In this document: piece after piece, positions 1,287 to 26,251 of the stretch
Position numbering within the stretch: position 1 is the stretch's first letter
How the letters are laid out: each line of letters starts with the position of its first letter
From: Escherichia phage DCP80
Length of the DNA stretch: 64,000 nt
Sequence record: PQ671644.1
Strand: one strand, 5' to 3'
Made by a program: the position numbers and the translations under genes
Notes under the pieces: generated by a model
Told to the model about the DNA's origin: nothing
Databases searched by the model: none
Seen by the model: only the letters and a program-made list of their open reading frames with translations

Positions 1287-1469
1287 ATGGATATCAAAAA
1301 ACTTTCTGAAGTTGCATTAGGTAAATGGAATCACCCAGCACCGCGGGTGTCAAAGTACGAAACGGATTTGCTGATAAATTCTGTGATGGATTATCTGTCG
1401 TACAGAGGTATCAAGCATGAAGAAATTCATGTTCAACGTTTGAAGAAATTCTTTGAAGGTAAAAAATGA
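1287..1469 (+). CDS. Hypothetical protein, first gene of late packaging operon
   Basis: 60-aa ORF with SD AGAGGA, late promoter upstream, stop overlaps next start (ATGA). Confidence 0.4.
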   Translation: MDIKKLSEVALGKWNHPAPRVSKYETDLLINSVMDYLSYRGIKHEEIHVQRLKKFFEGKK

Positions 1470-1744
1470 AATTTTATATCTACGATTACAAAAACCAATT
1501 AAGAACCAACCAGATTGTTCGTACTGGTGATTTGAACCATCAGAACCCTAACGTTTATTCAATCAAGATATACGGTACGAAAACACAACTTGAACAAAAT
1601 CCGGACCAGCTAATCAAAGCTGCTCTGCGTCGTATCAGCGAACAATTCGTAGATACAACTTACATCATTCCTGAGGTTGAAATCCAGATAACTGGTGGAT
1701 TGAAATCTTATGCTGAAATTTTTGTGAGGACTTATGAACATTGA
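1466..1744 (+). CDS. Hypothetical protein upstream of terminase
   Basis: 92-aa ORF translationally coupled to flanking genes. Confidence 0.4.
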   Translation: MKFYIYDYKNQLRTNQIVRTGDLNHQNPNVYSIKIYGTKTQLEQNPDQLIKAALRRISEQFVDTTYIIPEVEIQITGGLKSYAEIFVRTYEH

Positions 1745-3716
1745 AGAAAATTTGAGTGTTGAATTCCCTGAAGAAGTTGAACAAGAACAATTCAACCCTG
1801 TAGTTGAACGTATGAAAATTAAAAACATAATCCAGAGAGTATCAAAGTATATCAAAGCTCCTGAAGTGTGTAAGCCATCAGAATGGGTTGAGCGTAATTT
1901 GTATTTCCCTGATGGTCCGATGGCTAACCAACCGATGAAGCTTGATAACTTCCAGAAGGGAATGATTGATTCCATCAACGAAGGCAAGGTTAAAATTATT
2001 TTCATGACCTCCGCACAGATAGGAAAGACAACTGTTCTTAATGGTATGTTGTTCTGGAAATCTGCAATCGAAGGTGGAAACGTTGGTATCGCACAGGCAA
2101 CAGGCAAGGAAGTGTCTAACTGGTTGAACAGTAAGATAAGACCAATGATTGAAGTCTCCCCTGTTATGAAAGACCTGGTTGCGTCAAAAGCTGACCGTGA
2201 TAAATCAAACAACGAATCACGTATCGACCTTATGAACGGTGGTACATGGTTCATGATGTCATTAGGTTCCCCTACGCACCTGCGTGGTAAGACATTACCA
2301 ATGATTCTGATGGACGAAGTTGAAGGCGCAGAAGAATCTGAAGAAGGTTCTCCTATTAACCTGGCTGCCAAACGTGCAACGACTTTCCAGGACGAAGCGA
2401 GATTGATTATTTGCTCAACGCCAAATACGAAGTACGGTCCTATCAATAAAGAATTCGAAGCTTCTGATAAACGATACTTCATGGTTGATTGCCCCCATTG
2501 TGGTCATAATCACAGGATTACGTTTAAAGAGTGTATTAAATTCAATATGATACGTGAACAAGGTAAAGAGATTCCTGATGTTGATTCAGCTGTTCAAATC
2601 TGTCCTTCATGTGAACAGACCATAACAGATATCCAACGTACACGTATGATTCATAACGGTAAATGGGTAGCAACTAATCCAAACTCAAGCTCCATTGGAT
2701 TCCATATCTCTGCTCTTTATTCTCCGCGAAACTCCGTAAAAGGAATCGTGGAAGAGTATAAACAAGCGAGAGCATCGTTTGATGTTAAAAGTTTTTACAA
2801 CACAGTTCTGGGTGAACCATGGTCTGACGGAAACGAAAACATTGAGCTGCATGTTATTGATTCATTAAGAGAACCTATTGGATTGGAAAACATACCTGAT
2901 GATGTGTTGTTCTTAACAGCGGGCGTTGACCAACAGAAAGACCGTTTAGAAATTACAATCTTCGGTCACACAAAACATAAGCTGTACGTATTATCACACA
3001 AATCCATCCACGGACAGAACCTTGAATTGCATAACGACCCGGCATACAAAGGACTATATAATTACATAAGATTACCGTTCACAACTTGTACAGGTCGTAA
3101 GTTGACATTAGCACGAGTTAACATGGACTCCGGTAACGGTCGAGCAACGAAGGTAATTTATTCTTTTGCGCAGAAATGGAACAATATAAAGCCTATCAAA
3201 GGTGCATCAAAAGTTGAAGCTCCGTTTATTCCACCAAAATCTTCAACATCAGGTGGTTATGAATTATGGATGATTGGTGTTAACGAAGGCAAAAACAAAG
3301 TTCGTGAAATTCTTGCATCAAACATAAATGAGGCTGATACTCCTGAACTGGAATTGTCATTGTCTGATGATTTACCTGATGATTATGCTGAACAGTTGTT
3401 ATCAGAAGAAGTTGTCAAATCTGGTACAGCCAGACGCTGGGTAATCAGAAAAGGTGGTGGCCGAAATGAGTGCCTTGATACGTTTGTTTACGGATTAGCT
3501 GCTAGATTTCAAGTACTTAATACAAGTAATTGGGGATTCTGGGAAAAACTGAAAGACAAGAATGAAAAAACTGAGCAAATATCTCAAGAAGAAATTGATG
3601 AATCGGTAGAAACAGGTGTTGTTAACTATGTTGATATTAAACCTGAGAAACCAAAAGTTCAAAGACCACAACGTCCGCAAAGACCAAGGCCAACAACACA
3701 AAGAAGGAGATTCTAA
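1734..3716 (+). CDS. Terminase large subunit, lambda gpA-like
   Basis: 660 aa; CPHCGH...CPSC zinc motif, TAGVDQQKDRLE nuclease region and C-terminal FVYGLAA recalled from lambda gpA. Confidence 0.8.
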   Translation: MNIEENLSVEFPEEVEQEQFNPVVERMKIKNIIQRVSKYIKAPEVCKPSEWVERNLYFPDGPMANQPMKLDNFQKGMIDSINEGKVKIIFMTSAQIGKTTVLNGMLFWKSAIEGGNVGIAQATGKEVSNWLNSKIRPMIEVSPVMKDLVASKADRDKSNNESRIDLMNGGTWFMMSLGSPTHLRGKTLPMILMDEVEGAEESEEGSPINLAAKRATTFQDEARLIICSTPNTKYGPINKEFEASDKRYFMVDCPHCGHNHRITFKECIKFNMIREQGKEIPDVDSAVQICPSCEQTITDIQRTRMIHNGKWVATNPNSSSIGFHISALYSPRNSVKGIVEEYKQARASFDVKSFYNTVLGEPWSDGNENIELHVIDSLREPIGLENIPDDVLFLTAGVDQQKDRLEITIFGHTKHKLYVLSHKSIHGQNLELHNDPAYKGLYNYIRLPFTTCTGRKLTLARVNMDSGNGRATKVIYSFAQKWNNIKPIKGASKVEAPFIPPKSSTSGGYELWMIGVNEGKNKVREILASNINEADTPELELSLSDDLPDDYAEQLLSEEVVKSGTARRWVIRKGGGRNECLDTFVYGLAARFQVLNTSNWGFWEKLKDKNEKTEQISQEEIDESVETGVVNYVDIKPEKPKVQRPQRPQRPRPTTQRRRF

Positions 3717-4201
3717 TGGCTGAAATTACAAATCCCGATGTTACCTTATACATCGGTTCTGAACTAACTGTTACTATCAAGGGCTCCCATGGGGCCTTTG
3801 GACGTAATGACGGTGAAACATATGGTTTAGAAAACGGTATAAATAAAATCAATACAGACAATCTGACACCAGGTGTTTACACGTTAGTTGATTATGCTGA
3901 TACAATTGAATTCACACGTTATGCTGTGAAATCTCCGTTCGGTAAACAATCTCAACTTGAACAAATTAAAGAAATGATTCGCGCAATCAGAGCTTGTTTG
4001 TTAGCACGTGTGAACGGTGATGATGCATATCTTCAAAGCATGGCTTCAGATGGTTATACATTTGCTTATGCTTCTGTCATGGAGCTTGAAGAATTGTTAT
4101 CTGCAAACGAACGCAGATTAGCAAGAGCCAAACAAGCAGATGACATTAAGAAAGGTAAATCACCTATGAGAACAATTAAAGCGAGGTTCCGTCATGCTTA
4201 A
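3716..4201 (+). CDS. Head-module protein of unknown function (at lambda W position)
   Basis: 161-aa ORF between terminase and portal, overlapping both. Confidence 0.35.
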   Translation: MAEITNPDVTLYIGSELTVTIKGSHGAFGRNDGETYGLENGINKINTDNLTPGVYTLVDYADTIEFTRYAVKSPFGKQSQLEQIKEMIRAIRACLLARVNGDDAYLQSMASDGYTFAYASVMELEELLSANERRLARAKQADDIKKGKSPMRTIKARFRHA

Positions 4202-5735
4202 TCCATTTAAAGTCTTCAAAAGAAATGGTATAAATAAAGCTATTAAAAAGAAACAACGTGATGAACAAAAATTACGAATCATCAACGATTCACCACGAAG
4301 TCAAATTCGTGCTCTGGCTGTACAGTCTTCACGTTTAACAGAAACATTTGAACAAGATATGATTCGCGGTTCTATTAACCCTGCGATTCGTCTTGGAAAT
4401 CAGGCTTTAATGGACCAGGCCCAAACAATGGCTGTACAATCTGTTTACGGTAAAAAAGCTGTTCAATACAGTATCGACCAGGTTGTTGGTGCAGAGGGAA
4501 TTCTGCCTATGCCGATTGTTATGAAAAATAAAGAACTTGATGAAGCACTGAACGATGAAATCAGTTATGAATTTGATAAGTGGGCACGTAAAGCTTCTAA
4601 ATTTTCAACCAACGGACAAATGAACTTCCGTCAATTCCAACAGCAAATGGAAGCATCAAGATTTATTTTTGGTGAAGCTTTTGCGATTATCGAAGAAGAT
4701 GATTATGGAATTCGTGTTGAGGTAATTTCTCCGCAACGTTGTCGAATGAATTATTCCGAAAAGACCAAAGAAGGTAACTATATCATCGATTCAATCGAGT
4801 ATACCCCTAGTGGTCGCCCTGTAGCTTATTATTTTGAAATTCTTGACGTAATGGCAAACGATTCCATCACTGGTAATAAATTCCGTGTTGATGCTGATGA
4901 TTGTTTCCACTATTTCAAACCAAACGTTCCAGGACAACGACGTGGGATTTCTGAATTCGCACCTGTTATTAAAGAGTTGAACCAGTTGGATGAATTTACG
5001 TTTTCTACAATCGTTCAAAAACGTATGGCTTCTAACAGCATGGGATTCATTACAACAGATGCAAACGGTCACGATTCAATTGATATTGAAATGGACGATG
5101 AAGCTGATGATGTTTATCAAGAGCCGGATATTATCCAAGAATTTGAAGCTGGTACGATGCACCAGTTAGCCGCTGGTCAAGACATTAAACAAATTACAGC
5201 AACACAAGGAGCTGATGATTATGTCGCGTTTAACTCCGCTATGGAATCAAAAATCGCAATGGGTTTTGGATTCTTTAAACAGGGTTTTCTTGGTGATACC
5301 AGTTCAATTAACTATTCCTCTGCTCGATTTGGTGATGCACAGCAACGTAATATGATTAAATCAACACAATCAACTTTGCGTGAATCTGTTCTGGAACCAT
5401 TATATGAGCGTTGGCTTGAGTGGATGTATATGCAAGGGAAATTGGTCAAATCAGACCGAATGGTTGAGTTTATTGCAGTTAATACAGATTGGATTTATCC
5501 TAAATCTGAGAGCATCGACCCAATGAAAGACCTTGATATCGAGATTAAAGCCGTTGAAGCTGGTATGCGCACCCGTCGTGATGCAATTACAAGACTTGGT
5601 GGTGACGATGTTGATGCAACTTTTGCTGGTATCGAAGCTGAACAAGGTTTACGCGTTCCGAAGAATGAACAACAGTTGGCTGCAGTATCTGCTCCTGCAG
5701 AAATCGCCGCCGGGGTCTCCGAAGAAGGTGTATAA
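4194..5735 (+). CDS. Portal protein, lambda gpB-like
   Basis: 513 aa, position directly after terminase; size and sequence character of lambda-family portals. Confidence 0.75.
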   Translation: MLNPFKVFKRNGINKAIKKKQRDEQKLRIINDSPRSQIRALAVQSSRLTETFEQDMIRGSINPAIRLGNQALMDQAQTMAVQSVYGKKAVQYSIDQVVGAEGILPMPIVMKNKELDEALNDEISYEFDKWARKASKFSTNGQMNFRQFQQQMEASRFIFGEAFAIIEEDDYGIRVEVISPQRCRMNYSEKTKEGNYIIDSIEYTPSGRPVAYYFEILDVMANDSITGNKFRVDADDCFHYFKPNVPGQRRGISEFAPVIKELNQLDEFTFSTIVQKRMASNSMGFITTDANGHDSIDIEMDDEADDVYQEPDIIQEFEAGTMHQLAAGQDIKQITATQGADDYVAFNSAMESKIAMGFGFFKQGFLGDTSSINYSSARFGDAQQRNMIKSTQSTLRESVLEPLYERWLEWMYMQGKLVKSDRMVEFIAVNTDWIYPKSESIDPMKDLDIEIKAVEAGMRTRRDAITRLGGDDVDATFAGIEAEQGLRVPKNEQQLAAVSAPAEIAAGVSEEGV

Positions 5736-5788: not shown

Positions 5789-7789
5789 ATGTCGCAAACA
5801 ATCAGATTAAAACGTGAAATTTCTGTAGAGAAAATTCAGGCTGATGAAGACGGGATTTATGAAATTGCATTTTCTTCTGAAACCCCTGTTGAACGTCAGA
5901 TTGATACTCGTCACGGTCCACAAATTGTGAATGAAATTCTCATGCACACAGGTCCGGAAAACGCAGATTTAGAGCGTATAAATAATAATGCAAGCTTGCT
6001 GTTTAACCACAATTTCGACAACCATTTAGGTGTTGTTGTTCCTGGTTCAGTACGTATTGACAATGATAAAGTTGGCCGCGCTAAAGTAAAATTTTCAAGC
6101 GTTGGACAATTAGCACAAGAGATTAAAGCCAAGGTCGATGAAGGCACAATCTCAAAAATTTCGTTTGGATACGACATTAACGAGTATGATGTTGTTGGTG
6201 ATGACATGCTTGTTTCTCGTTGGGCACCATATGAAATTTCTTTCGTCACTGTCCCGGCAGATGATAAGGTTGGCCTCGGCCGCAGTATAAATAATATTGT
6301 AATTAACACAAATAAGGAAAAACGAATGAAACGTTACGAAGATTTTGAAATTGAAGACATCGTTGAACTGTCACGTGAAGAACTCGCTGATATGACAATC
6401 GCTGAAATCGAAGCCCTGGCTGAAGATGTACGTGCTAAGCGTGAAGAATTGCTTGACGAAGTTGAAGACGCTGAGAAAGAAGAAAAAGTTACCGATGAAG
6501 AAGATGCTGACTACGACAAAGCTGAAGGCAAAGATGCAGAAGCTAAAGTTGAAGATAAAAAAGCCGAAGGCATCGAAGACGAACTCACTGCTGAAGAGCG
6601 TGAAGAAGAAATCATCGAAATTGAAGAAATCGCTGAACGATACAAAATCGGTCGCGGAGAAGTTCGCAAAGCCATCGCAAGTGGCATGACTGCTCGTCAG
6701 TTCAAACGTTCTATTAAACCATCTAAAAACAAAAAGGAAATTCGTACTATGACTACCTCTATCGCTAAAGATACCCAGAAAAACCTCGAAGCTCGTTTTG
6801 ACCTGGCTGAAGTAACCCGTTCACTTGCTGCTGGTAAAGACATTAAAGGCGCTGCTGCTGAGTACTCTCAGGAAATGACTCGTAAACGTCAGAACGCAGG
6901 TCGTGACATTAACGGTCGTGCATATATCCCGGTAAGTGCTCTGCAAGGTCAGCGCGCAGTAAACACCGTTCCTACCGTTGCAAATATCGAACAGCACTAC
7001 GTTGATTACAACAGCTTTGTTGAATTGCTGCTCAAACCAACTGTAATTGGTAAACTGGGTGTTAACTTCCAGACCGGTCTGACCACTCCTTACGATGTAC
7101 CGAAACAAACTTCCAGCTCTGTTGATGCGTTTGGTTTCGTTGCTGAAAACGGTGACTCTCCTGAAGGCGAAAGCGGATTTGACATCATCAAATTCATGCC
7201 GCACACCTTTACTGGTGGTAACCCGATTTCTCGTCAGGCTCTTAACACCATGCCTAACCTGGCAAGCTTCATCTCTAACCACATCGTAGAACAATCTCGT
7301 TCTAAGATTCAAGGTCTGATGTTTGGTTCTGCTACTGACCCGGTTGCTTCTGGTGCTAACGCTCCGCAGAGCATCATCGCTCAGTTGGTTGCTAAGCAGA
7401 TTGGTATGACCTACAAAGAATTCGTTACCCTGGCTGCTGAAGCTGAAGGTAAAGGCGTTGCAATGGACCGCTTCAAGTATCTGATTGCTTCTGCACTTGG
7501 TGGTGAACTGAAATCCACTCTGCGTGATGCTGCTGTTGCTGGTTACATCATCGATGATGAAAACCGTATCGGTGGTCATGATGTAGTTACCTCTGGTCTG
7601 GTTAAACCTGGTCAGATTCTGTCTGGTGACTTCTCTGCAATCACTGTTGCTGAATGGGAAGGTCTGGCACTGGATATGGACGACACGACCTATCGTAACA
7701 AAGGCGCTATCGTTCCGCGTGTTTGGTGTGATATCGATTGGAAAGTTACTGCTGACGACCGTCTGTTCTTGTTCGAAAAGACAGCATAA
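5789..7789 (+). CDS. Fused prohead protease (HK97/S78-like) - acidic scaffold - major capsid protein
   Basis: N-terminus has LLFNHNFDNHLG and ISFVTVPADDKV motifs like HK97 gp4; central acidic coiled coil; C-terminal ~330 aa capsid-like. Confidence 0.7.
   Translation: MSQTIRLKREISVEKIQADEDGIYEIAFSSETPVERQIDTRHGPQIVNEILMHTGPENADLERINNNASLLFNHNFDNHLGVVVPGSVRIDNDKVGRAKVKFSSVGQLAQEIKAKVDEGTISKISFGYDINEYDVVGDDMLVSRWAPYEISFVTVPADDKVGLGRSINNIVINTNKEKRMKRYEDFEIEDIVELSREELADMTIAEIEALAEDVRAKREELLDEVEDAEKEEKVTDEEDADYDKAEGKDAEAKVEDKKAEGIEDELTAEEREEEIIEIEEIAERYKIGRGEVRKAIASGMTARQFKRSIKPSKNKKEIRTMTTSIAKDTQKNLEARFDLAEVTRSLAAGKDIKGAAAEYSQEMTRKRQNAGRDINGRAYIPVSALQGQRAVNTVPTVANIEQHYVDYNSFVELLLKPTVIGKLGVNFQTGLTTPYDVPKQTSSSVDAFGFVAENGDSPEGESGFDIIKFMPHTFTGGNPISRQALNTMPNLASFISNHIVEQSRSKIQGLMFGSATDPVASGANAPQSIIAQLVAKQIGMTYKEFVTLAAEAEGKGVAMDRFKYLIASALGGELKSTLRDAAVAGYIIDDENRIGGHDVVTSGLVKPGQILSGDFSAITVAEWEGLALDMDDTTYRNKGAIVPRVWCDIDWKVTADDRLFLFEKTA
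6286..6293 (+). promoter_or_regulatory. Internal TATAAATA late promoter inside the protease-capsid ORF
   Basis: TATAAATA then AAGGAAAAACGA-ATG, in frame, at about 6326. Confidence 0.5.
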
Positions 7790-7930: not shown

Positions 7931-7938
7931 TATAAATA
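7931..7938 (+). promoter_or_regulatory. T4-type late promoter TATAAATA
   Basis: GTTATAAATAAGGTAAAGGAGAAATT-ATG (7955). Confidence 0.65.
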
Positions 7939-7954: not shown

Positions 7955-8350
7955 ATGGAAATAAAAGATTCATCTACAACCAAATTTGTCCAGGAAGCAG
8001 TATTGATTTCTAATAAATCATATGGTCAACGTCGTTTTAACAGTTTCACTCAGAAAGAACAATCATTGTTCACCAAAAAGATGGGGCTTAAAACACGTGT
8101 TAGAGATAACTTTGCACCTGAAACGATTGAAGAAATAAACGCAATCTGGCGTGAACAACGAGAAGACACCGACCTTTCTGTTGGTAGTATGATTTATATC
8201 TTGATAGACGAAGATGATTTCTTTTTCTGGCGCGAGTATGAATCACCTGAAGGAAAATGGTATAAAGCTGGTAATACCACCAAATCTTATAACGGTATGC
8301 TCCGTGTAGAATTATCAATAGGGGAAGCAGATGGCAAGTTCAATTATTAA
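7955..8350 (+). CDS. Hypothetical head-tail joining module protein
   Basis: 131-aa ORF with late promoter and SD GGAG. Confidence 0.35.
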   Translation: MEIKDSSTTKFVQEAVLISNKSYGQRRFNSFTQKEQSLFTKKMGLKTRVRDNFAPETIEEINAIWREQREDTDLSVGSMIYILIDEDDFFFWREYESPEGKWYKAGNTTKSYNGMLRVELSIGEADGKFNY

Positions 8351-8753
8351 TTATCCACCGTTGAGCGTTAAAAAAGGCCTCGAAACTGTTATGAAACAAA
8401 TTGGTATCAAAGTTAACGTTGATTCTTATAAAGCTGATGTTAATGATGAAATCCAAGGTGTAGTAATGGGAATTCAATCCGAGTATCAAGAGCCAACTCC
8501 TATGCAGAAACACCAATTTGTTGACCTGACAGTTAACGTTGGATTGTTTACCAAACGTGATGCATTGCTGTTAGCCGAAGCCGCTGAAGAAATTAAGAAA
8601 ATCGATTTTGCACAAAAACCTTATAATGATTTGGTTGATTTCAAAGTTAACCGCATGTGGGTGTCTTCTGATACGATTGATTTCAGCGAAACAGATTCCG
8701 ATGGTAACGTACAAGCGATAATCATTTTCAATATCCAATACCTCAAAATTTAA
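8331..8753 (+). CDS. Hypothetical head-tail joining module protein
   Basis: 140-aa ORF, coupled to neighbours. Confidence 0.35.
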   Translation: MASSIINYPPLSVKKGLETVMKQIGIKVNVDSYKADVNDEIQGVVMGIQSEYQEPTPMQKHQFVDLTVNVGLFTKRDALLLAEAAEEIKKIDFAQKPYNDLVDFKVNRMWVSSDTIDFSETDSDGNVQAIIIFNIQYLKI

Positions 8754-8759
8754 GGAGCT

Positions 8760-10859
8760 ATGATGGCTGAAGTTTTTGCAGGAACTAAAGTACGTATGGC
8801 TGTTAACGAAGACCTAACTTCTAACAGCCCTATGTACATTGACGCAGGGTATGTACCCTTAGATAATCTGGTTGCATTTCCAGAGATAACCACACAAACT
8901 GAAACATACAAAATGGAATCATATAACGAGGATTATGAGCGCGTTATATTAGGAGCATATGGTTCCGCCCCAGTTACAATCCAAGTTGCCGAAGTTGCCG
9001 ATGATGAAGCACAAGGTATCCTTGACAAGTATCTTAACTCAATGAAAATGTTACGATTCCGTATCATGTGGGTTGAAAAGGAATTACCTCCGGTTGAAGG
9101 TATGCCTGCTGAAGAACAATACAGTGGTCCAACTGCAATCTTTGATGCTTATGTGACTTCTACTCATCTGTCGGGTGGTGAAAACCAAACTGTTATTCGC
9201 AGTTATACATTATCCCCGTTTGGAAAAGTTACACGTGATGTAACAAACCTTGGTGAGTACGTTCGTCGTGGACAATATGGCGTAGGTGGTGGTACAACTG
9301 ATTATCCGGGCCCTACAGACACCAATAGTTATGAAGGTAACCGTTGGGTCAACCTGTCGGCAGCAAGCTCCCAGAACCCATTTGCGGACTCCACAGGGGC
9401 TATGACAGTACAATCAGGTGAGCAAGGTTGGGCATTAGTCGGTTCTTCAACTGGTAACATGATGCTCCGTGCCAGAAACCGTCAGCTATCACGTGTTGGT
9501 GAGTGGACCAAAATCTATACCTCCGCTGAACCACCTACTGCAGCTGAAATTGGTGCTATCCCAACAGTAGGTGATGCTTATGTACAAGGTAACTTGAAAG
9601 CAAACAGCTTCTACGTAACTGATACTGCTGGAACAACTATCACCACGCAGATTAACAAAGACGGTATCACCACTAACGTGTTGAAAATCACAGGCTCTGT
9701 TAACTCTCCTAACTCTAATATCAGCGGCACATCAACGCTTAATATTGTAACGGCGAATAAGTTAACTGCTCAGGAATTGATTTCTCCATTGGCTCGTATT
9801 GATACTGGTACAGTTACAACGTTGGGTTCAACTGATTTCACAGCTTTCGACGCAGTTGTTAATAACAAGTTGGTTGCGAAAGAAGCAGAGATTGATGATT
9901 TAACGATTAACACAAGATTCCACGTAGGTGCAGGTGCTTCGTTCCAGATTGCTGGTAACGTACAATCAGCAACTGTAACTGCAACGGATAAAGTTACAAC
10001 CAAGAACCTTGAAGTACAAGAGGTTGAAAAGGTTGGACAAGTTAACCCTAACCGTGTTTTTATTCACTCTGTAAATGAGACTCCAGAAGCATACGACTCC
10101 ATGAACACAGGTATATCGCCTAAGTTGTCGTTATCCCAAGCAGCAACATTAGTTGGATATGCAGGTGAATTTAAACCAGACGGCTCAACACTGAAAGCTT
10201 ACGAGTTTACAAACAACTTGCAACAGTTAGAAAATGCCAGAATTACCAACTTAACAGTTGTGAATGGAATTGGTGTTAATAACTTATCATTCAGTGGGGC
10301 AATCACAGCTGGTAATAGCGATGCTAAGATTTTGTTAGAAACTCCGGACCAAGTTATTGTCTCAAATGATGCAACTCCTGGAGTAGCTGCAGCTCACTGG
10401 ACTGAAATTCGAGCAGGTGTTATCTACATCGATGGTAAACCAATTTGGCACGATGGTAATATCCCTAACGTTGTACAAATGGGCGGTGTTCCATTAAATG
10501 GTAACTCAACAATAACTGGTGATGTAACTGTTAAAGGCCGTGTTTCTGCTGATTCAATGCGTGTCGGTCCAAACATTTTGATGACAACGGACCTTATAAA
10601 TATTGGTATCGGAACAATCAAAATCGGTGGACAAGAAATTTTCCATCCAGGTAACCCTCCAACTGCTGCACAATGTAAAGCTGTTCCATTAGCTGGTAAC
10701 TCGAGAATGGACGGTGAATTGACAGCTAACAAACTTTACGAGTACAACACTGTTACTTCTACACAAGAACGTGTTTTTAGCCCGTTAAACAGACCAACTG
10801 CAGCAAATGCCGGTGTTATGGTTCTGCTTGGTGACGTTATCGATTTTGGTTTAGAATAA
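8760..10859 (+). CDS. Tail-tube-like N-domain with long fibre-like repeat extension
   Basis: First ~100 aa paralogous to 13211..13705 (FAG, VP..FPE, Y.DNY motifs); C-terminus has repeated G/P/N-rich fibre motifs. Confidence 0.5.
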   Translation: MMAEVFAGTKVRMAVNEDLTSNSPMYIDAGYVPLDNLVAFPEITTQTETYKMESYNEDYERVILGAYGSAPVTIQVAEVADDEAQGILDKYLNSMKMLRFRIMWVEKELPPVEGMPAEEQYSGPTAIFDAYVTSTHLSGGENQTVIRSYTLSPFGKVTRDVTNLGEYVRRGQYGVGGGTTDYPGPTDTNSYEGNRWVNLSAASSQNPFADSTGAMTVQSGEQGWALVGSSTGNMMLRARNRQLSRVGEWTKIYTSAEPPTAAEIGAIPTVGDAYVQGNLKANSFYVTDTAGTTITTQINKDGITTNVLKITGSVNSPNSNISGTSTLNIVTANKLTAQELISPLARIDTGTVTTLGSTDFTAFDAVVNNKLVAKEAEIDDLTINTRFHVGAGASFQIAGNVQSATVTATDKVTTKNLEVQEVEKVGQVNPNRVFIHSVNETPEAYDSMNTGISPKLSLSQAATLVGYAGEFKPDGSTLKAYEFTNNLQQLENARITNLTVVNGIGVNNLSFSGAITAGNSDAKILLETPDQVIVSNDATPGVAAAHWTEIRAGVIYIDGKPIWHDGNIPNVVQMGGVPLNGNSTITGDVTVKGRVSADSMRVGPNILMTTDLINIGIGTIKIGGQEIFHPGNPPTAAQCKAVPLAGNSRMDGELTANKLYEYNTVTSTQERVFSPLNRPTAANAGVMVLLGDVIDFGLE

Positions 10860-10898
10860 AATTAATCGGGGCTTCGGCCCCCTAAATGAGGAATTAAA

Positions 10899-14133: not shown

Positions 14134-14144
14134 TTCTTCGTGGA

Positions 14145-18211: not shown

Positions 18212-18219
18212 TATAAATA
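18212..18219 (+). promoter_or_regulatory. T4-type late promoter TATAAATA
   Basis: CGTTATAAATAAAGT upstream of 18261. Confidence 0.6.
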
Positions 18220-18677: not shown

Positions 18678-18678
18678 A

Positions 18679-21600
18679 ATGGCAGTAGTAGCTATAGGTG
18701 TAATTGTTGCAGCGGCATCAGCAGGTGCTGCAGCGGCGGCCGCTGGTTTATCAATAGCATTATCTATTGGTATCGCCGTTGCAGTTGGTGCGTTAAACGC
18801 ATTAATGACATACAGCATGATGAATCAACAATCAGCAAGCTTCAACTCTCCTGATACTGGTTCAACATTAGGGACAGCAAGTAACCCAAGCACAGTTCTC
18901 CCGTTAGTTTATGGCGAACAACGTGTTGGTTCTATTGCAGTTTGGAAAGCTCTTGACAACCAAGACAGACGTCGCCTGGTACAAGTGTTTGCTGTTGCTC
19001 AGGGTGAAATTGATGGATTCAAACAGCTCTATATGGACAACAAGAAAATCTTCCGTGATGATTTGTTCTTCCGTAATGGCGTTGTGCAGAATGGACAGAT
19101 TCTTGACATCTATAAAAAAGCTGTTGAAGTTGAATTTGGTTGTGGTGGTCCAGGTCAGAAAGCTTCTGTTCTTGCTCAGAAATATCTGGGTAAAGGCGAA
19201 TGGCCAGATACAATGACCGGTAACAACGTTGCATGGTGTGTTATTGTTATGTACAAATCCAACGACCAGTTACAAGACGGTGTTGACATCCTCCAGCCAC
19301 AATCACAAGTTGCTCTGGATATTGTTGGGAAGAAAATCACAGACCTTACAACAGGTGTAGTTGGTCCATCTCAGAACGGTCCATCTCAGGCATACGATTA
19401 TTTCGTAACCCCAACCGGCCGTGGTGGTCTTGGAATCTCTGGTACTAAACTGGATATTGATTCCTTCCGTGAAGCTGCGTTTAAAGTATCAGGAGCCAAG
19501 CTTTATTCCAATGGTACGTTTGACCCGAACGCAACTGCTAAAGAAAACCTGACACAGCTGTGTGGTAGTTTCCAAGGATTTTGTTTAACTCAATTCGGTT
19601 TAATCTCTCTGGTTATTGATGAACCAGCTCCAGTTGCATGGTCTTTTACAGAGAACGAAGTTGAATTAAAAGATGTTTCCCTGAAAGATGGTGAATCGGA
19701 AAAAGACTGGAACGTATTAAACGTGTCTTATCAGGAACCTCGTCTTGATTACTCCAGCCAGATTCTGCGTTATCCTTCTGTTATTACCCCAGAATGGATT
19801 CAAGCAAACGGTGACCCGAAATCAAAAGACATTGAGTACAAATTTGTTAAAGATAAAGCACAGATTGATAAGTTAGCTTCTATTGAACGAAACAAAATGA
19901 GCCTGACTCGTAGCGTTACTTTCAGAACGTTTGCAACTTATACAGTACAAGTTTGGGACGTTATCGAATTTACTTTCGAAGAATTCAATCTTAACAAATC
20001 TAAATGGCGCGTAACTTCTGTTAACCGTGATGCAATCGGTGGTACCTTCGGTGCTGTAACGATTCAAGCATCAGAGTATAACGAACAAGTATACACCAAT
20101 ATGGATTTTGCTAACAACCCTAACTATAACGAATCAAACATTCCTAACGTTGGAGTTCTTCAGCAGCCAACCAATCTTCGTTGTCGTGCTGTAATGGCTA
20201 CTAACTTTGGTACAAGCTTCCTCGCAACATGGGACGCTATCCAAGATTACAACCGTATCGGATTCCGTGTAGAGTACAAACGCTCCGGTTCAAACAACTG
20301 GATTAACGGTGGTACGACTTCATATAATGAATTCCGTATCGAAGGTCTGGTTATGAATGATGGTGAGCTGATTGATGTACGAGTTTGTGCATACGGTTTG
20401 TTCGGTCGTTCAGAATGGGTAACACTGCAAGCTTCACAAGAGATTCCATATGACCTCCCAGGAGTCACAGGATTGCGTCTGGTGAACAATGCCGGTAATG
20501 CTAACACTACACTAGATAAAGACTTTATCTTCGCATGGGACGACCAGGGCGACCAGATACTGACAATTGATGGTGAGCGTGTGAAGTACAACCAAGTGTT
20601 CAGTCATTATCAGATTTATGTAACAGTTAATAACGTTGTACGTACCTACGTTACCAAAGATGTTGGATTCACGATTTCTTATGAAATCAACCGTGATATT
20701 GCTGGTATTGCTAAACGTGATGTTAAGATTGAAGTGCAACCGATTGGTGTACAACGCCGTTCAGGTCCTAAAGTTGGAATGACAGCAAGGAACAACCAGG
20801 CAACTGCGATTCAGAACTTCAACGCTACTCCAGGTTTTGGTTATATCGTTTGTTCATGGAATGACCCGATATCAATTCCAGATTGGGCAGGTACACAGAT
20901 TCAGTTCAGTAAGACTCCAGGATTTGAGACTCCACTTTATGCAACAACTTCCGACCGCTTCCAACAGTTTGTAGATATTGATGATGGCGATTACTATGTA
21001 AGAGCTGGTTGGTTTGACGTGTTCGGTGTTGATAATGAAATGGTTCTCTCCCAACCGATTTTTGTTTCTCTGAAATCGAAGGTGGACTGGACGCAGCAAG
21101 ACCAAGACCAGATTGATGACCTGTTGAACTTAACAGACCGTCTTGACCAGGCGATTGCTGATGCTCTTCTGTTAGCTGGACAACAAATGACAATCATGGA
21201 AAATCGTATCAACGAAACAACTGATGCGAAGATTTTAAATTCCAAAGCAACAACCCTTACTGAAGCTGGTGAGATGATTGCACAGCAGATTAACATTGTT
21301 AACTCTAACATGGATGAAATGTCTGCAACAATCACCAAACTTGACCAAGCTGTAACGTCTCCGACAGGTTCGGTTGCAACGCAGATTAATCAGGTTAAAG
21401 CTGAAATGGGTTCACAGATTGCATCGGTTGACCAGGAATCTAAAGCAAGTATCGATAAGTTAACAGGGGATATTAACTCCAGTTATTCATTAGCAGTTAA
21501 TGCTAATGGTCGTGTAGCTGGTATGAAGTTAATCGCTTCTAATGACCCAACTAAAGATACTGCAATCTATTTCACCGCAGACAAGTTTGCGATTACTTCT

Positions 21601-22437
21601 CAGACAGCTGGTGGAACAACGATTATTCCGTTTGCAGTACAAAACGGTCAGGTGTTTATGAACAGCGCATTGATTGCTAACGCATCAATCGGTTCAGCTC
21701 AAATCGCCAACGCAGCTATTAACAATGCTAAGATTTCTGATGCGGCTATCAACACAGCCAAAATCCAGGATGGAGCCATCACTAATGCTAAAATTGTTAA
21801 CGGTGCGATTGATAACGCTAAGATTGGTCAGTATATAAGAAGCAACGACTTTGTATCAGGTTCTCGTGGATGGAACATAGATAAAAGTGGTTATGCTGAA
21901 TTCAACAACGTAACAGTTCGTGGTAACATCTACGCGAATAATGGATTATTCAGAGGACGTATCGAAGCTACTGACGGTTATTTTAGTGGTACTGTTTACG
22001 CTAACAAAATCGAAGGTGATATCGTTACACCTGAGCGTGGTACAGTTGGATTGGACTTCCGTTGGGAAGGTGACCTCAGTGGTACAAGAAGAGTAATGCA
22101 ATTCGCCGGTGCTGATTATAAACGATTCCTGGATTCAAACTTAGTGTTAAGGATTTATGCTACATGGGAAAACAACGAATTCCGTGTTTATAGTTGTTCT
22201 TCAGCTGGTCATAGAACCGAATTGTTCTACTATCGTAACCCAGGACCATATGCAGGTGTTAAGGATTTCAGACTACAAGGTGTACCATTAGAACAGGCTG
22301 GTAGAGCTGGGTCTAACTGGATTGAAGTAACAAATACGGCGAATAGAAACGCTAGATACGGTTGGTTTACAACTGATGGAACAAGTACATCTTATGTTTG
22401 CGCATATCGTGCAGGTTCACAACGTTTAGTTATATAG
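18679..22437 (+). CDS. Tail tip assembly / central fibre protein, lambda I-J fusion
   Basis: N-terminus has Ala/Gly-rich segment and [12 protein letters not shown] like gpI (LPVLYGEMRVGS); remaining ~1100 aa J-like; start set to ATG after SD AAGGTGG. Confidence 0.7.
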
Positions 22438-22471: not shown

Positions 22472-22933
22472 ATGGAAGTAATGAGTTTGGCTGCATTTGT
22501 AAAATTAGTTGGTTGGTTAGTAGGAGCAATTGCTTTTGTTGTCGGTTCAATCTGGAGCGTAGGTAAAGGCATAGGTGCTATCAAGGGAAAGTTTATTGAT
22601 AACCCAATCAAGGAAGTTAAAGACGAAGTTAAAGCTTTACAGGATAATCTTTCTGAAGTTGAAAAGAAGATTGAATCTGTGGATATCAAACAGCAAGCTC
22701 TGATTGATTCTATCAAGACCAATAGTGATATGACAATGTTGCATATCGAAAAGATTTCAACACAGATGGATGGTATGAAGGAGTTAGTATTATCAAAGAA
22801 TGATGAAGTAAACCGCAGGCTGGCCGAGACTGAAAAACGTCAACAAGACCAGATTAATGAATTTCTGAAAGCTGCACTGGCTAAGGGAATTTCCAACAAC
22901 GTAAACTTTTCCGGAGACCAACGTGTACGATGA
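22472..22933 (+). CDS. Membrane-anchored coiled-coil protein, possible i-spanin
   Basis: 153 aa, N-terminal hydrophobic segment then charged coiled coil; same size and layout as lambda Rz. Confidence 0.4.
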   Translation: MEVMSLAAFVKLVGWLVGAIAFVVGSIWSVGKGIGAIKGKFIDNPIKEVKDEVKALQDNLSEVEKKIESVDIKQQALIDSIKTNSDMTMLHIEKISTQMDGMKELVLSKNDEVNRRLAETEKRQQDQINEFLKAALAKGISNNVNFSGDQRVR

Positions 22934-22958: not shown

Positions 22959-23426
22959 ATGAAAGCAATAGAGTACAAACATATGTTATACGAAAGACAA
23001 CATGGAATTTGTCTGCTATGTAAACTTCCGCTTGAAGATGTTAAAAGTTCCCATCTAGACCACGACCACGCTTTAACAGGTCCTAATGCTGGATTCTGCC
23101 GAGGACTTCTATGTCCTAGTTGTAACGTCTTGGAAGGAACTTTGCTGCATAAATTCAACAGAAGTGGATTAAAAAGTAAAACAACCTTTACAGCTTATCT
23201 TAATAACCTGCTATCTTATTATGCAAATCCACTGCATGAAAAGATACACCCTAATTTTATTAGAGATAAGGTGAAGGCTGTTTCACGGATGAGCAATCAA
23301 AGTATCATAGCTGAAATTGAAAAACTGACCTTTAACCTCCCAGCTGATAAGTCAAAGAAAGGACTTGTCAGTTTCTATCGTAAGGCTCTTAAGAAGTCCC
23401 TGGAGGACGTATGTCTGCAAAGTTAA
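22959..23426 (+). CDS. 49: Endonuclease VII-like Holliday junction resolvase
   Basis: CLLC...HLDHDH...GLLCPSCN...HKFNRSGLK...IHPNF closely follows T4 gp49 as recalled. Confidence 0.8.
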   Translation: MKAIEYKHMLYERQHGICLLCKLPLEDVKSSHLDHDHALTGPNAGFCRGLLCPSCNVLEGTLLHKFNRSGLKSKTTFTAYLNNLLSYYANPLHEKIHPNFIRDKVKAVSRMSNQSIIAEIEKLTFNLPADKSKKGLVSFYRKALKKSLEDVCLQS

Positions 23427-23583
23427 AGGTTAATAAAGATTTACTAAAAAAAGTGCTCATGGCGGCCCTGATAAGCTCCTTGGTATGGAATCATATAGTA
23501 TCACCTATAATTCTAATAACCACAGGTGTAAGTATCACGATTCCGATGCATGAAGTACTTCAACCGTTAATGCTATTACTATA
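23410..23583 (+). CDS. Small membrane protein, possible holin
   Basis: 57-aa ORF below track cutoff, SD GGAGGA, one hydrophobic helix; overlaps end of gene 49. Confidence 0.3.
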
Positions 23584-23592
23584 AGGAATGAT

Positions 23593-24144
23593 ATGAGAGA
23601 CCCTAATAAAGGTAAAGCTCGGAAGGTCAAGGAAGACCTTCAAAAGTGGGCGATTAAGGAAGATGACGTTTTCAGTAAGAAATTAACAAAGGCTTCCAAG
23701 CTGGCATCAGTTCAGTTACAGAGATATATCAACGGTAACATCAAAGGAGGTGCAACACCTTTTACACAGAAAGCAGTGGGATTCCAATTTAGATATGATA
23801 AGTTTGGTTCCTGGAACAGAATCTATATAAGAGATGCACAAGCGGCTTATCTTGGTGACCTGATTGATGATGACAAACGCTTTAAGAAGTTTGTACCAAT
23901 CGCTGGCAGGAACACAAACAAGTTCGGTAACATAATTGGTTTAAGGAATTTCAGAAACCTTATTCCCGTTAAACAGATGCATAACGGACGAATGAGAACA
24001 ATTCTCATCAAGCCATCAGCTAAAGGTATAAAAAGATTCGTTGCTGTACAGAAGGAAATTTCCCCACGGAAAACATTAGGTTCATGGAAAGAAATGGAAA
24101 AGAGAATGATAAATAACATTAACAGAGTCATTCACTCCAAATAA
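23593..24144 (+). CDS. Hypothetical basic protein
   Basis: 183-aa ORF, Lys/Arg-rich. Confidence 0.4.
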   Translation: MRDPNKGKARKVKEDLQKWAIKEDDVFSKKLTKASKLASVQLQRYINGNIKGGATPFTQKAVGFQFRYDKFGSWNRIYIRDAQAAYLGDLIDDDKRFKKFVPIAGRNTNKFGNIIGLRNFRNLIPVKQMHNGRMRTILIKPSAKGIKRFVAVQKEISPRKTLGSWKEMEKRMINNINRVIHSK

Positions 24145-24157
24145 ACTAAGGATTAAC

Positions 24158-24457
24158 ATGTACAAGTACAGATATTATAACGAAGAATCATTACTAACGT
24201 TAAAGATAAACGGTGTGAATCCACCAGGTTGTTCATTACCAGAACCAGCTAAAAGTTTAAAGAAATTCCAGAAGGTAAATGATAACGATTACTTTGCTGT
24301 GTCAACTTTGTTCAAGACACCAAAGGTTTCTTATAAGAAAGGGGAAGTTGTTAAACTAGAAGGATTCCCGTTAAGGAGAGAGGCTGTGTGTATCGGTGAT
24401 TTGTTACACACAGAGAAGGGGTACAGAATTAAAAGTTATATCTTCCAATTCTGTTAA
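24158..24457 (+). CDS. Hypothetical protein
   Basis: 99-aa ORF. Confidence 0.35.
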   Translation: MYKYRYYNEESLLTLKINGVNPPGCSLPEPAKSLKKFQKVNDNDYFAVSTLFKTPKVSYKKGEVVKLEGFPLRREAVCIGDLLHTEKGYRIKSYIFQFC

Positions 24458-24868: not shown

Positions 24869-25333
24869 ATGTCAGAAGCTTTTAACATGCTGATGAAAGA
24901 TGAAGGCATCGAGTATCATCTTTATAAATGCACGCAAGGATACTGGACAATCGGGATTGGTCATATGATTTCCCGTGATAAACAAACAGCTGAACGATTC
25001 CTTAATGAGAAATTTGGGAAGTGTGTAATAAGTAAGGAGCAGGCTATCCAGTTGTTCAAGCAAGATTATAATCATGCAGTATTAGGTGCACAGAGTATCG
25101 TAAGATTAGACACCTACCGTGAATTAGCATTGTCTAATATGGTTTTCCAGATGGGACTTGGTGGTGTACTGAAGTTCAAGAAAATGATAGCTGCACTGAA
25201 GATACAAGACTGGAACGAAGCTTATAAGCAGGCTTTAGATTCTACATGGTATAAACAAACACCTAATCGTGCCAAACGTGTGGCCGAGGTACTAAGAGAT
25301 GGGAAACAAGCATATGTCAAACATTACTCCTGA
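24869..25333 (+). CDS. e: Lysozyme, T4 e-type (GH24)
   Basis: EG..Y.C..GYWTIGIGH, NMVFQMG and WYKQTPNRAKRV match T4 lysozyme motifs. Confidence 0.85.
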   Translation: MSEAFNMLMKDEGIEYHLYKCTQGYWTIGIGHMISRDKQTAERFLNEKFGKCVISKEQAIQLFKQDYNHAVLGAQSIVRLDTYRELALSNMVFQMGLGGVLKFKKMIAALKIQDWNEAYKQALDSTWYKQTPNRAKRVAEVLRDGKQAYVKHYS

Positions 25334-25526: not shown

Positions 25527-25534
25527 TTACTTTC

Positions 25535-25554
25535 CGGGGGCCCCCTCCCCGGGA
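25535..25554. promoter_or_regulatory. GC-rich near-dyad element CCGGGGGCCCCCTCCCCGGG, candidate cos nicking site
   Basis: Isolated GC-rich imperfect twofold symmetry in AT-rich region ~200 bp upstream of Nu1-like gene. Confidence 0.4.
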
Positions 25555-25759
25555 TGTTACGCCCACCCATTCTTCTGTTTACCAGAAATTTTTTTGGGAT
25601 AGCTAACACAACTTTATAATTATAAAATATTTTTTAAAATTAAAAATAGTTTTGAAAATAAATTTTGATTTTAAAATTAATTTTACAATTCATGAACTTA
25701 TAAGTTCTTAATTTCTAAAAGATTTTCAAGAGCTTTTCCAAAACTGATGAGGAATTAAA

Positions 25760-26251
25760 ATGTCAACCAAAGACCCGATTTATCTTAACCAAAAACAAAT
25801 CTCCGAATCCTACGGAGTTACGCGCCAGACGATTGCAGAGTGGCAGAAGCGTGAAAATCCAATTCCGTGGATTGCTGGACGGGGATATCCGATGCCTGAT
25901 GCCGGAGTTTGGATTGCAGAAAATTTTATAAAAACTTTAAGACAGAACAACGAAGCACAGGATTTTAATTATCACAAGACAAGGAAGATGGCAGCAGAAG
26001 CGGACATTGCTGAAAGGGAAAACATGCTCGAGGCGCAATCCGTTATCAGAACAGATTTCGTAGAAGAGGAGTTAAGGAATTTTGTTACAAGAGTTAAGGA
26101 AACCCTCCGCGTCATTCCATTGAAGTATGCAGAAGATATTGCTATAAGAGCAACAAGCACATCAGAAGTTAAGAAGGCATTAAGGGAAGCGATTGATAAA
26201 TCCCTGAACGAGATTGACCTGTTGATGTTGTTTGAAGAGCATGAAGAATAA
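25760..26251 (+). CDS. Terminase small subunit, lambda Nu1-like winged HTH
   Basis: KQISESYGVTRQTIAEWQKRE parallels Nu1 KQLADIFGASIRTIQNWQEQG; downstream coiled region matches Nu1 layout. Confidence 0.55.
   Translation: MSTKDPIYLNQKQISESYGVTRQTIAEWQKRENPIPWIAGRGYPMPDAGVWIAENFIKTLRQNNEAQDFNYHKTRKMAAEADIAERENMLEAQSVIRTDFVEEELRNFVTRVKETLRVIPLKYAEDIAIRATSTSEVKKALREAIDKSLNEIDLLMLFEEHEE

Follow-up and report, generated by a model that had tools for sequence, protein, structure and literature searches.

A candidate satellite virus with its own siphovirus-type virion behind T4-type promoters, sequenced together with T4-like phages

The sequence record PQ671644.1 (Escherichia phage DCP80) was analysed here as one window, a stretch of 64,000 nucleotides (nt) to which all positions below refer; all of the evidence is computational. 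The first 30,710 bases of the window (1-30710, hereafter contig 1) hold a block of plus-strand genes, 1287-26251, that encodes a complete siphovirus-type set of virion and packaging proteins, followed by a block of mostly small minus-strand genes. Copies of the T4 late-promoter sequence, TATAAATA, stand ahead of many of these genes, and a lambda/HK97-type virion module behind T4-type late promoters is unusual. The features of the plus-strand block are as follows, with product lengths in amino acids (aa).

1287-1744 (first gene 1287-1469), plus strand: two small genes, 60 aa and 92 aa, without family matches, preceding the terminase gene
1734-3716, plus strand: large terminase of the lambda gpA family (PF05876, 8e-52; PF20454, 4e-50)
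3716-4201, plus strand: head-tail joining protein (phrog_5774, weak; present in 83 of 85 related loci clustered)
4194-5735, plus strand: portal of the lambda family (PF05136, 9e-59)
5789-7789, plus strand: S78 protease, acidic scaffold and HK97-type major capsid protein in a single nested open reading frame (ORF) (Pfam)
7955-8753, plus strand: two head-completion or neck genes, 131 aa and 140 aa, assigned by position and conservation
8760-13136, plus strand: two fibre genes, 699 aa and 745 aa (phrog_23676, phrog_1699, phrog_19966)
13211-13705, plus strand: tail tube (phrog_158, 2e-12; PF08813, weak), with a late promoter at 13165
13780-14462, plus strand: two genes in the tail-assembly-chaperone position, assigned by that position and conserved in relatives
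14463-16877, plus strand: tape measure, 804 aa, assigned by size and position; its homologues are named tape measure proteins by their sources
16905-17465, plus strand: distal tail protein (tail-tip region evidence: phrog_1302, phrog_2048, PF09931, PF22262, PF09327, PF13550)
17462-18124, plus strand: hub protein (same tail-tip region evidence)
18261-18677, plus strand: DUF6950 protein, with a late promoter at 18212
18637-22437, plus strand: J-like tip protein, 1266 aa (same tail-tip region evidence)
22472-22933, plus strand: 153-aa protein between the tip protein and endonuclease VII, conserved in the relatives L002 and L014 only, with weak NCBIfam noise
22959-23426, plus strand: endonuclease VII, a Holliday-junction resolvase with the T4-type dimerisation domain (PF02945, PF09124)
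23411-24457, plus strand: three small genes of 57 aa, 183 aa and 99 aa, the latter two products kept in the temperate relative L006
24465-24776, minus strand: 103-aa protein with an N-terminal hydrophobic stretch, a lone minus-strand gene with its own sigma-70-type promoter
24869-25333, plus strand: GH24 (T4 e-type) lysozyme (PF00959, 3e-11)
ending at 25526, plus strand: 75-aa gene after the lysozyme
25760-26251, plus strand: small terminase of the Nu1 type (phrog_57, 9e-20)

A first-pass annotation of the sequence had assigned lambda/HK97-type content to this block, and searches of Pfam and PHROGs bear that out. The gpA terminase, the lambda-family portal and the HK97-fold capsid with its protease all score above curated cut-offs (PF05876, PF20454, PF05136, PF04586, PF05065), and the tail has the tube, chaperones, tape measure and tip of a non-contractile type (phrog_158, phrog_1302, phrog_2048, PF09327), while sheath and baseplate-wedge families have no match anywhere in contig 1. 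The same annotation named lambda-type V, G, T, tape-measure, L, K and I-J tail genes; a siphovirus tail module is indeed there, but its tip is made of Dit, hub and J-like genes and not of a literal lambda L/K/I set. It had also pointed to T4-type endonuclease VII, e-lysozyme and HNH genes in the block. All three are present, and the endonuclease VII is 43% identical over its full length to Gaprivervirus gp49, but because the endonuclease and the lysozyme also occur in relatives that lack T4-type wiring, they are no evidence of a T4 backbone. From the terminase type only (gpA, Nu1, HNH), we predict cos genome ends. The N-terminus of the 745-aa fibre protein resembles T4-type distal long-tail-fibre proteins, and Peptidase_S74 or T4_gp36 domains occupy the fibre position in relatives; a tblastn search with the 745-aa protein found no match among phage records.

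The first-pass annotation had further described the virion block as embedded among T4-type genes, within a single hybrid genome that links T4-type genes for replication and transcription in cis to a lambda-like, non-contractile virion module. Both kinds of gene are adjacent in the window as given, and T4-type promoters, an endonuclease VII and an e-type lysozyme do lie inside the block. However, five runs of N (30711-30720, 40994-41040, 49791-49800, 56743-56760 and 62887-62940) divide the window into pieces of 30710, 10273, 8750, 6942, 6126 and at least 1060 bases, and part the virion block from the T4-type genes. The strictly descending lengths are the pattern of assembler output joined end to end, and by this pattern the window is more than one molecule. 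Contig 1 begins and ends with the same sequence (terminal overlap, no strand: 1-111 equals 30600-30710, 111/111 identical by self-BLAST), and because of this exact 111-bp end repeat it closes to a unit of 30,599 bp. On these grounds we regard it as a separate replicon. Independent closure is seen in a relative with a 72%-identical terminase, L002 (ENA ERZ14207148 k141_48483, reassembled from the loci L002 and L013; the labels L002, L003, L006-L011, L013-L015 and L018-L111 denote the related loci used in our comparisons). Through a 141-bp overlap inside its tail-tube gene, a different point from that in contig 1, it forms a 31,451-bp circle with the gene order of contig 1 and no T4-type replication genes.

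The remaining pieces have the properties of other genomes. Piece 2 (30721-40993, all genes on the minus strand) carries motA, gene 52, ndd, denB, rIIB, rIIA and rIIA.1, and piece 3 (41041-49790) is a second strain's copy of this locus in reverse complement, with ~6.1 kb at 94-99% DNA and 93-99% protein identity. These two inverted copies of one T4-like locus, 96% identical, are best explained by two co-assembled Gaprivervirus strains rather than by a real inverted repeat; piece 3, moreover, opens within gene 39 and on a strand that a natural neighbour of piece 2 would not have. Gapriverviruses and related coliphages (VR7, TH44, UPEC01, P896) match pieces 2 and 4 at 95-97% identity, and in reference Gaprivervirus genomes these two pieces lie ~25 kb apart in opposite orientation. 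Because of the N runs, the self-closure of contig 1, the inverted duplicate and this conflict in map order, we assign the T4-type genes past 30720 to other genomes, and read them as fragments of at least two ordinary T4-like phages (Gaprivervirus, VR7-like) on other contigs. The genes for gp45, gp44, gp62, MotA and rIIA found in the window are confined to those contigs. Reference Gapriverviruses carry the full T4 virion gene set, including gp23, gp18, gp20 and gp17, whereas 1-30710 holds no gp23-type capsid, gp18 sheath, gp20 portal, gp17 terminase or gp43 polymerase, and no gp55, gp33 or gp45, so that contig 1 does not qualify as a Straboviridae genome. A single hybrid genome would also have to hold 30.6 kb on top of ~170 kb, more than the packaging capacity of a T4-type head; this, together with the closure of L002, is also why we rejected integration of the contig-1 element into a T4-like genome. 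We therefore consider a single hybrid genome very improbable. The apparent embedding is an artefact of joined contigs, the virion block is not joined to T4-type replication genes, and, as far as sequence alone can tell, it comes from a different genome. The case illustrates that concatenated contigs can be mistaken for one hybrid genome.

Some details of the joints may be recorded here. The N runs differ in length (10, 47, 10, 18 and 54), whether as spacers, through masking or from scaffold-gap estimates. The duplicated ~6.1-kb segment (denB region, rIIB, rIIA, rIIA.1) spans 34833-40993 on the minus strand and 42925-49790 on the plus strand, each copy abutting an N run, and the ORF of gene 39 (topoisomerase II large subunit; 41045-42793, plus strand) starts at an N run with a truncated N-terminus, as fits a contig end. 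At the end of this gene 39 fragment, upstream of rIIA.1, lies the sole TATAAATA outside contig 1 (42789-42796, plus strand).

With the T4-type genes on other molecules, the control signals of contig 1 itself carry the link to T4. The control regions, and the small operon served by one of them, are these.

717-979, minus strand: imperfect ~120-bp tandem repeat, copies at 717-832 and 866-979, found by self-comparison within the non-coding stretch 1-1286
1260-1267, plus strand: first late promoter, TATAAATA, 19 nt before gene 1287-1469 and hence before the terminase operon
26270-26289, minus strand: UUCG-loop hairpin terminator between the convergent gene blocks, with the GGGACCTTCGGGTCCC core found also at 13711 and 18187
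29220-29750, no strand: non-coding stretch with repeated TTTTGATTAAAAGTCC(C)AAAAA and AAAACAGCCTTTTT motifs, without ORFs or an Rfam match
29751-29766, minus strand: hairpin terminator of the early operon
29773-30606, minus strand: early operon of three small genes, 30289-30606 (105 aa), 29942-30148 (68 aa) and 29773-29940 (55 aa), without a match in Pfam, PHROGs, NCBIfam or PDB
30638-30666, minus strand: early (sigma-70) promoter of T4 type, TTTACA-17-TATCAT within GGGGTTTACA, the best sigma-70-like site in the region (10/12)

A T4 late promoter consists of TATAAATA at -13 to -6 without a -35 element, and gp55, acting with gp33 and the gp45 clamp, reads it (PMC1524935, PMC2988020). The window contains 17 copies of this 8-mer where a Markov model predicts 3.84 +/- 1.8, a count reached by none of 100 shuffles, and 16 of the copies lie in contig 1 (~2 expected, an eight-fold enrichment). 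Strand bias is complete: the 11 plus-strand sites all fall among the plus-strand genes, and the 5 minus-strand sites (26955, 27414, 28083, 29216, 30297) all within the minus-strand block. The first-pass annotation had counted at least seven virion-module genes preceded by TATAAATA with T4-style spacing, and this holds in the T4 late-promoter format, with seven plus-strand sites (1260, 5731, 6286, 7931, 13165, 13736 and 18212) placed 16-50 nt ahead of a start codon that bears a ribosome-binding site (RBS); the other four (3838, 4229, 5977, 10595) are intragenic. Counting both strands, 12 of the 16 sites stand upstream of a start codon, most at gaps of 16-72 nt and often directly past a C(UUCG)G hairpin. 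Most promoter-start gaps of VR7 late genes measure 17-52 nt, and the density of the boxes is 0.52/kb in contig 1 against 0.37/kb in the VR7 late region (18 boxes in 49 kb).

Could the boxes be ordinary AT-rich -10 elements, or chance, in an ordinary phage without a functional link to T4? Contig 1 is AT-rich (39% GC), TATAAA resembles the sigma-70 -10 hexamer, and a TGn extension is present at 3 of 11 sites. Neither the eight-fold enrichment, out of reach of any shuffle, nor the perfect strand bias is expected on that view, and the invariant 8-mer includes two final bases that sigma-70 does not require. No -35 element accompanies the sites, its place being taken by hairpins or unrelated sequence, and a scan of contig 1 for sigma-70-type promoters found no enrichment. 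The box positions are also kept in the related loci L014, L009, L010, L011 and L002, the proteins of which are 42-100% identical to those of contig 1. We consider this explanation unlikely, and predict that the boxes are gp55/gp33/gp45-dependent promoters.

One site argues for function through its arrangement. Within the protease-capsid ORF, the late promoter at 6286 lies 32 nt ahead of an in-frame internal ATG (6326) with its own RBS; the leader there and the one of the tail-tube gene are ~90% identical, and the internal TATAAATA is kept in L002 and L014. This looks like a nested gene for the production of extra scaffold-capsid protein. In the tail-assembly-chaperone position, the true start of the first gene is the ATG at 13780, 36 nt past the late promoter at 13736, and ahead of the two neck genes (7955-8753) a UUCG hairpin again accompanies the TATAAATA at 7931.

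Some of these signals are homologous to Gaprivervirus control DNA itself. The cassette GGGACCTTCGGGTCCC-TTTTTT-nnn-TATAAATA, present at 13711 and 18187, is nearly identical to the cassette gggaccttcgggtcccttttttatttTATAAATA that precedes gene 9 in VR7; searched for exactly, the hairpin-promoter cassette had 0 matches in IMG/VR. A 33-bp cassette of stop codon, GGGGC-TTCG-GCCCC hairpin and RBS between the fibre genes (10859-10891) is 94% identical to 37138-37168, past rIIB in the T4-like contig. The early-promoter core (window 27-81) matches, at 85% over 55 bp, the region upstream of mobD.5 in VR7 and ~20 related phages. This promoter precedes the three-gene operon, which ends at its terminator, and because of the terminal overlap its sequence recurs at 39-67. 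Direct homology to Gaprivervirus DNA is thus found for two of the three promoter classes in contig 1. The minus-strand late promoters (26915-26964, 27373-27424, 28057-28083, 29190-29216) share a common leader, TATAAATA-AA(A/T)(G/T)TATGAAA(A/G)C..., followed by a hairpin, and the VR7 late promoters before genes 22 and 24 begin alike (TATAAATAaatgtata, TATAAATAaagtata).

The third class is of the middle type. Each copy of the 717-979 repeat starts with TGCTT(T/C)A, a MotA box, followed after 12 nt by TATAAT (975-951 and 827-803, minus strand), in agreement with the T4-type format of a MotA box that is centred near -30 and stands 11-13 nt upstream of a sigma-70 -10 element; a motif scan of contig 1 found 3 such sites against 0.8 expected. 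Neither promoter in the repeat has a downstream ORF, and the non-coding DNA around them is 25-30% GC. The format TGCTTTAA...GTTATAAT recurs in the equivalent non-coding DNA of L002 (8578, 6764) and L009 (135), and in the divergent T4-like locus L015, within flanking DNA that cannot be aligned. Downstream of the MotA-box promoters, each repeat copy (740-760 and 885-905, minus strand) holds GAGCGAAGC, which includes a GCGAAGC heptamer. At some phage origins this heptamer folds into a DNA mini-hairpin of unusual stability. The T4 origins oriF and oriG each consist of a MotA-dependent middle promoter and a downstream A+T-rich unwinding element, and ~100 bp of such a middle-promoter origin suffices for a plasmid to replicate in T4-infected cells (PMC3016281). 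Because of its likeness to this layout we propose, with modest confidence, that the tandem repeat is an R-loop-primed origin, or else a pair of non-coding RNA genes. The other non-coding stretch, 29220-29750, is a candidate cos or origin region.

The proteins that would read these signals are missing from contig 1. Searches of Pfam, PHROGs and NCBIfam found no sigma factor, gp55, gp33, MotA, AsiA, polymerase, primase, helicase, initiator, integrase or repressor in it, and a tblastn search with Gaprivervirus gp55 gave no match at E values up to 10. The absence of gp55 and gp33, both of which the first-pass annotation had proposed to look for, leaves contig 1 without the T4-type late apparatus in cis. 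By these family searches, contig 1 lacks key replication genes, as do satellite viruses of the MulchRoom/MiniFlayer kind, and ~15 small ORFs of no assigned function remain. Rfam and tRNA scans of contig 1 found nothing. The minus-strand block is made up as follows.

26293-29136, minus strand: block of an HNH endonuclease, nine small ORFs and a 243-aa coiled-coil protein
26564-26890, minus strand: HNH endonuclease (PF13392)
28216-28947, minus strand: coiled-coil protein, 243 aa, without a family match

Besides the HNH endonuclease, about a dozen small minus-strand ORFs have no family match in Pfam, PHROGs or NCBIfam. Sequence searches of PDB with three unassigned proteins returned noise only, and a structure model of the 243-aa protein was discarded as too poor for use (pLDDT 55). 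Homologues of the HNH endonuclease occur in L002, L014 and three IMG/VR loci only, and none in L006-L008. The 243-aa protein and two further minus-strand gene products of 49 aa and 47 aa have homologues on L015 (Logan SRR23924977 contig 4018; 23.8 kb, 36% GC), a fragment of a divergent T4-like myovirus with baseplate-hub and clamp-loader genes that has no megablast match among phage records. L015 carries eight co-oriented TATAAATA boxes together with its MotA-box promoter of contig-1 format, and we count the three shared non-structural genes as support for gene exchange between the contig-1 lineage and T4-type phages.

Close relatives of contig 1 (terminase identity of at least 72%) are known from metagenome assemblies only, and none is an isolate genome or a plasmid. 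In addition to L002 they include the contigs L010, L011 and L009 (98%, 94% and 89% terminase identity); L014, a contig of 29,973 bp, has a 99%-identical portal and a 69-73%-identical tape measure. The 92-aa product ahead of the terminase is kept in L002 (47%), and genes of 60 aa and 91-92 aa are called at the equivalent position in L009-L011. Against 50,697 phage records, megablast with the block found no DNA match, and the terminase reached at best 30% identity or less. Scans of IMG/VR and JGI metagenomes for close-relative terminases found none, and the relatives returned by an alignment-based IMG/VR scan and a capsid scan were all at 65% identity or less. A phage-plasmid origin was rejected on plasmid matches that were all at 28% identity or less.

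Taken together, a full virion set, the lack of genes for transcription, replication and integration, three T4 promoter classes, co-assembly with Gapriverviruses and a presence in metagenomes only make one reading the most economical: contig 1 is a virulent satellite virus with its own virion, dependent on a co-infecting T4-like phage for transcription and probably for replication. We put the probability of this reading at about 0.6. Its link to T4 would then most likely operate in trans, through a helper, rather than in cis, and the most likely candidate helper is the Gaprivervirus sequenced together with it. The sequences themselves show a separate replicon, its gene content, promoter motifs with their enrichment, placement and conservation, homology to Gaprivervirus control regions and a lack of detectable factor genes; helper dependence, the identity of the helper and the mechanism of replication are what we infer from them.

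On this reading, the host sigma-70 polymerase alone would read only the T4-early-type promoter, with its three small genes, and the promoter of the 103-aa gene (TTTACG-17-TATACT, first hexamer from 24854, minus strand). In a cell infected by the helper, the MotA/AsiA-modified polymerase would fire the tandem MotA-box promoters, which may prime replication by the helper replisome in the manner of oriF and oriG. The helper's gp55, gp33 and gp45 clamp would drive the TATAAATA promoters of the virion, packaging and lysis genes, the internal one yielding extra scaffold-capsid protein. DNA synthesised from the nucleotide pool of the helper would carry modified cytosine, which would protect it against the helper's nucleases and Alc. 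Recombination-dependent replication gives branched DNA, for which an endonuclease VII of its own would be useful; that enzyme would debranch the replicated DNA, and the gpA/Nu1/HNH terminase would package unit genomes into the element's own heads.

The wider family of contig 1 complicates this picture. Hundreds of Enterobacteriaceae genomes encode a terminase at 38-55% identity, as do IMG/VR prophage predictions of 30-38 kb; the hosts include E. coli, Salmonella, Enterobacter, Citrobacter, Serratia, Yersinia and others. Those relatives whose context was read are integrated and carry a large serine recombinase; L006, for example, occupies ~34 kb between ybiT and ldtB in E. coli PSS-15 (NZ_AP027709.1, 3347069-3381278). 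The genes that contig 1 has in common with integrated relatives are limited to the virion genes, endonuclease VII, the lysozyme and two unassigned genes. No replication genes were recognised among the L006 proteins scanned or in precomputed Pfam matches for L003-L008. Low GC content as an adaptation to T4 was rejected as an idea, the integrated relatives being equally AT-rich (37-39%, against 51% in the flanking chromosome).

In integrated relatives TATAAATA is not enriched, and CTAAATA takes its place at the same intergenic positions: observed against expected counts are 15 vs 6.7, 15 vs 4.2, 10 vs 3.4 and 9 vs 2.5, nearly all on the gene strand. Other lineages have AATAAATA or GATAAATA in place of CTAAATA, while the contig-1 clade has the exact T4 8-mer, at 16 sites in contig 1, and is depleted in CTAAATA. 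Across the family (L003, L006-L008, L018-L111), strand-biased CTAAATA or (A/G)ATAAATA sits past hairpins and ahead of virion genes. In the T4-like phage Aeh1 the late-promoter consensus is CTAAATA, starting at -12, and other T4-like phages often have A or T at -13 (PMC1524935). The TAAATA motif is therefore ambiguous, and may be addressed to gp55-type factors from T4-like helpers or equally to a factor of the family's own.

This ambiguity opens a way for contig 1 to be an autonomous small virulent siphovirus. Such a phage would read a -10-only TAAATA-type promoter with its own unrecognised late factor and rely on the host for replication; its T4-like signals would be partly ancestral and partly borrowed cassettes, and the T4-like contigs bystanders. 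Several observations favour it and weigh against helper dependence. A strand-biased TAAATA-core motif (CTAAATA, AATAAATA or GATAAATA) is similarly placed in more than 80 related loci, mostly prophage-like, so that the family may own a factor that is still encoded among the ~15 small ORFs of the contig-1 clade; because of this motif we hold our confidence in helper dependence at the level given above. Those ORFs are unannotated, as is a coiled-coil protein whose architecture and position recur in many lineages. Host polymerase alone might suffice for the MotA-box promoters, whose extended -10 (TGTTATAAT) is perfect. The sole T4-like segment of contig 1, 55 bp long, coincides with the contig break, perhaps because a T4-like genome in the sample has the same repeat, and co-occurrence with T4-like contigs could be incidental, from a sewage or gut sample or from binning.

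On the other side, neither gp55-like, sigma-like nor replication proteins are found in contig 1 with four libraries and tblastn, and, beyond the common genes listed above, the contig-1 clade has no detectable non-structural protein in common with the temperate clades. TAAATA-type boxes fit the sigma-70 -10 consensus poorly and have no accompanying -35. The exactness of the T4 8-mer, with CTAAATA depleted, the correctly spaced MotA boxes in all three closest relatives with an examined non-coding region and in L015, and the direct homology to a Gaprivervirus early promoter and hairpin-promoter cassettes are likewise hard to reconcile with independence from T4-like phages. We regard an autonomous phage as possible, though clearly less probable than a satellite virus.

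A bolder extension of the satellite reading, for which we have only tentative expectations, would cover the whole family. Its members, whether chromosomal or virion-borne, may all be satellites of T4-like phages, with virion genes that are switched on upon T4-like infection by gp55-type -10-only promoters (CTAAATA or (A/G/T)ATAAATA); the contig-1 lineage would have given up integration and adapted its promoters to the T-even consensus. If true, the best-studied group of virulent phages would be subject to a widespread layer of parasitism that has so far gone unrecognised, and this could explain a large family of small 'prophages' without replication genes.

The closest described systems appear to be the Streptomyces satellite viruses MulchRoom and MiniFlayer, which have their own virion genes and lack replication genes (deCarvalho et al. 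2023; PMC10690885). Like contig 1, they are small tailed-virus genomes found by sequencing beside a larger lytic phage, with their own encapsidation genes and without key replication genes, and MiniFlayer, also without an integrase, is a virulent satellite (PMC10690885). Contig 1 has capsid, tail and packaging genes of its own. It was co-assembled with contigs of Gaprivervirus, a prospective helper, a co-occurrence that may be incidental. By contrast, the helpers of the Streptomyces viruses are siphoviruses of Actinomycetota, where that of contig 1 would be an enterobacterial T4-like myovirus; the proposed dependence of contig 1 is read, from sequence alone, in cis copies of the helper's early, middle and late promoters, signals not reported for the Streptomyces systems; and contig 1 gives no sign of physical attachment to a helper.

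In mechanism, the closest counterparts may be the virophages. Sputnik and mavirus are small viruses that have a capsid but no transcription machinery of their own, and their genes bear the late-promoter motif of a large helper virus. The logic of regulatory mimicry is common to both; virophages have eukaryotic hosts, an unrelated lineage, another capsid fold and a cytoplasmic virus factory, and the comparison is one of analogy, not membership. P4, PICI, cfPICI, PLE and PICMI resemble the proposed lifestyle of contig 1 as parasites of helper phages; PLE and PICMI exploit virulent helpers, and PLE uses helper replication machinery. These classical satellites are integrated islands of 5-20 kb with an integrase and usually their own replication initiator that steal all or part of the helper virion. 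Contig 1 is the reverse, with a full virion, no integrase and no replication genes, and does not belong among them.

Lambda/HK97 siphoviruses have in common with contig 1 the gpA and Nu1 terminase, the lambda-family portal, the S78 protease with HK97-fold capsid, the tape measure, the J-like tip and an HNH gene near the terminase genes. Contig 1 differs from them in its terminase (30% identity or less to any sequenced phage), in having no repressor, integrase, replication module or Q-type late control, and in the division of its late genes into many units with a T4-type promoter each. With the T4 system it shares TATAAATA at -10 without a -35, a MotA box with a -10, a GTTTAC-type early promoter, UUCG hairpins and a middle promoter in non-coding DNA (PMC2988020, PMC1524935, PMC3016281), but the proteins that read these early, middle and late signals are not encoded by contig 1.

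Few viruses have been studied as intensively as T4 and its relatives, yet the literature we searched holds no report of a satellite of T4-like phages, nor of a satellite carrying TATAAATA. If our reading is true, a parasite with a siphovirus virion of its own commandeers the whole early, middle and late transcription programme of a T4-like phage, and probably the phage's replisome, by cis-acting mimicry. This would be a bacterial counterpart of the virophages, would extend the 'satellite virus' lifestyle from Streptomyces to enterobacteria and would offer a tractable E. coli/T4 system for hyperparasitism; for phage therapy preparations, too, such passengers in T4-like lysates would be of importance.

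A last observation concerns the temperate relatives. Genes of 186 aa and 217 aa beside their recombinase, which we had considered as a gp55-like factor lost from contig 1, turned out to be inverted distal-tail and hub genes. In L006 these two genes (8089-9302, minus strand) are inverted with respect to the other tail genes and lie beside the serine recombinase (6248-7747), with a tape-measure-like gene at the far end of the prophage. The inversion could be recombinase-mediated, or could reflect an unusual position of attP.

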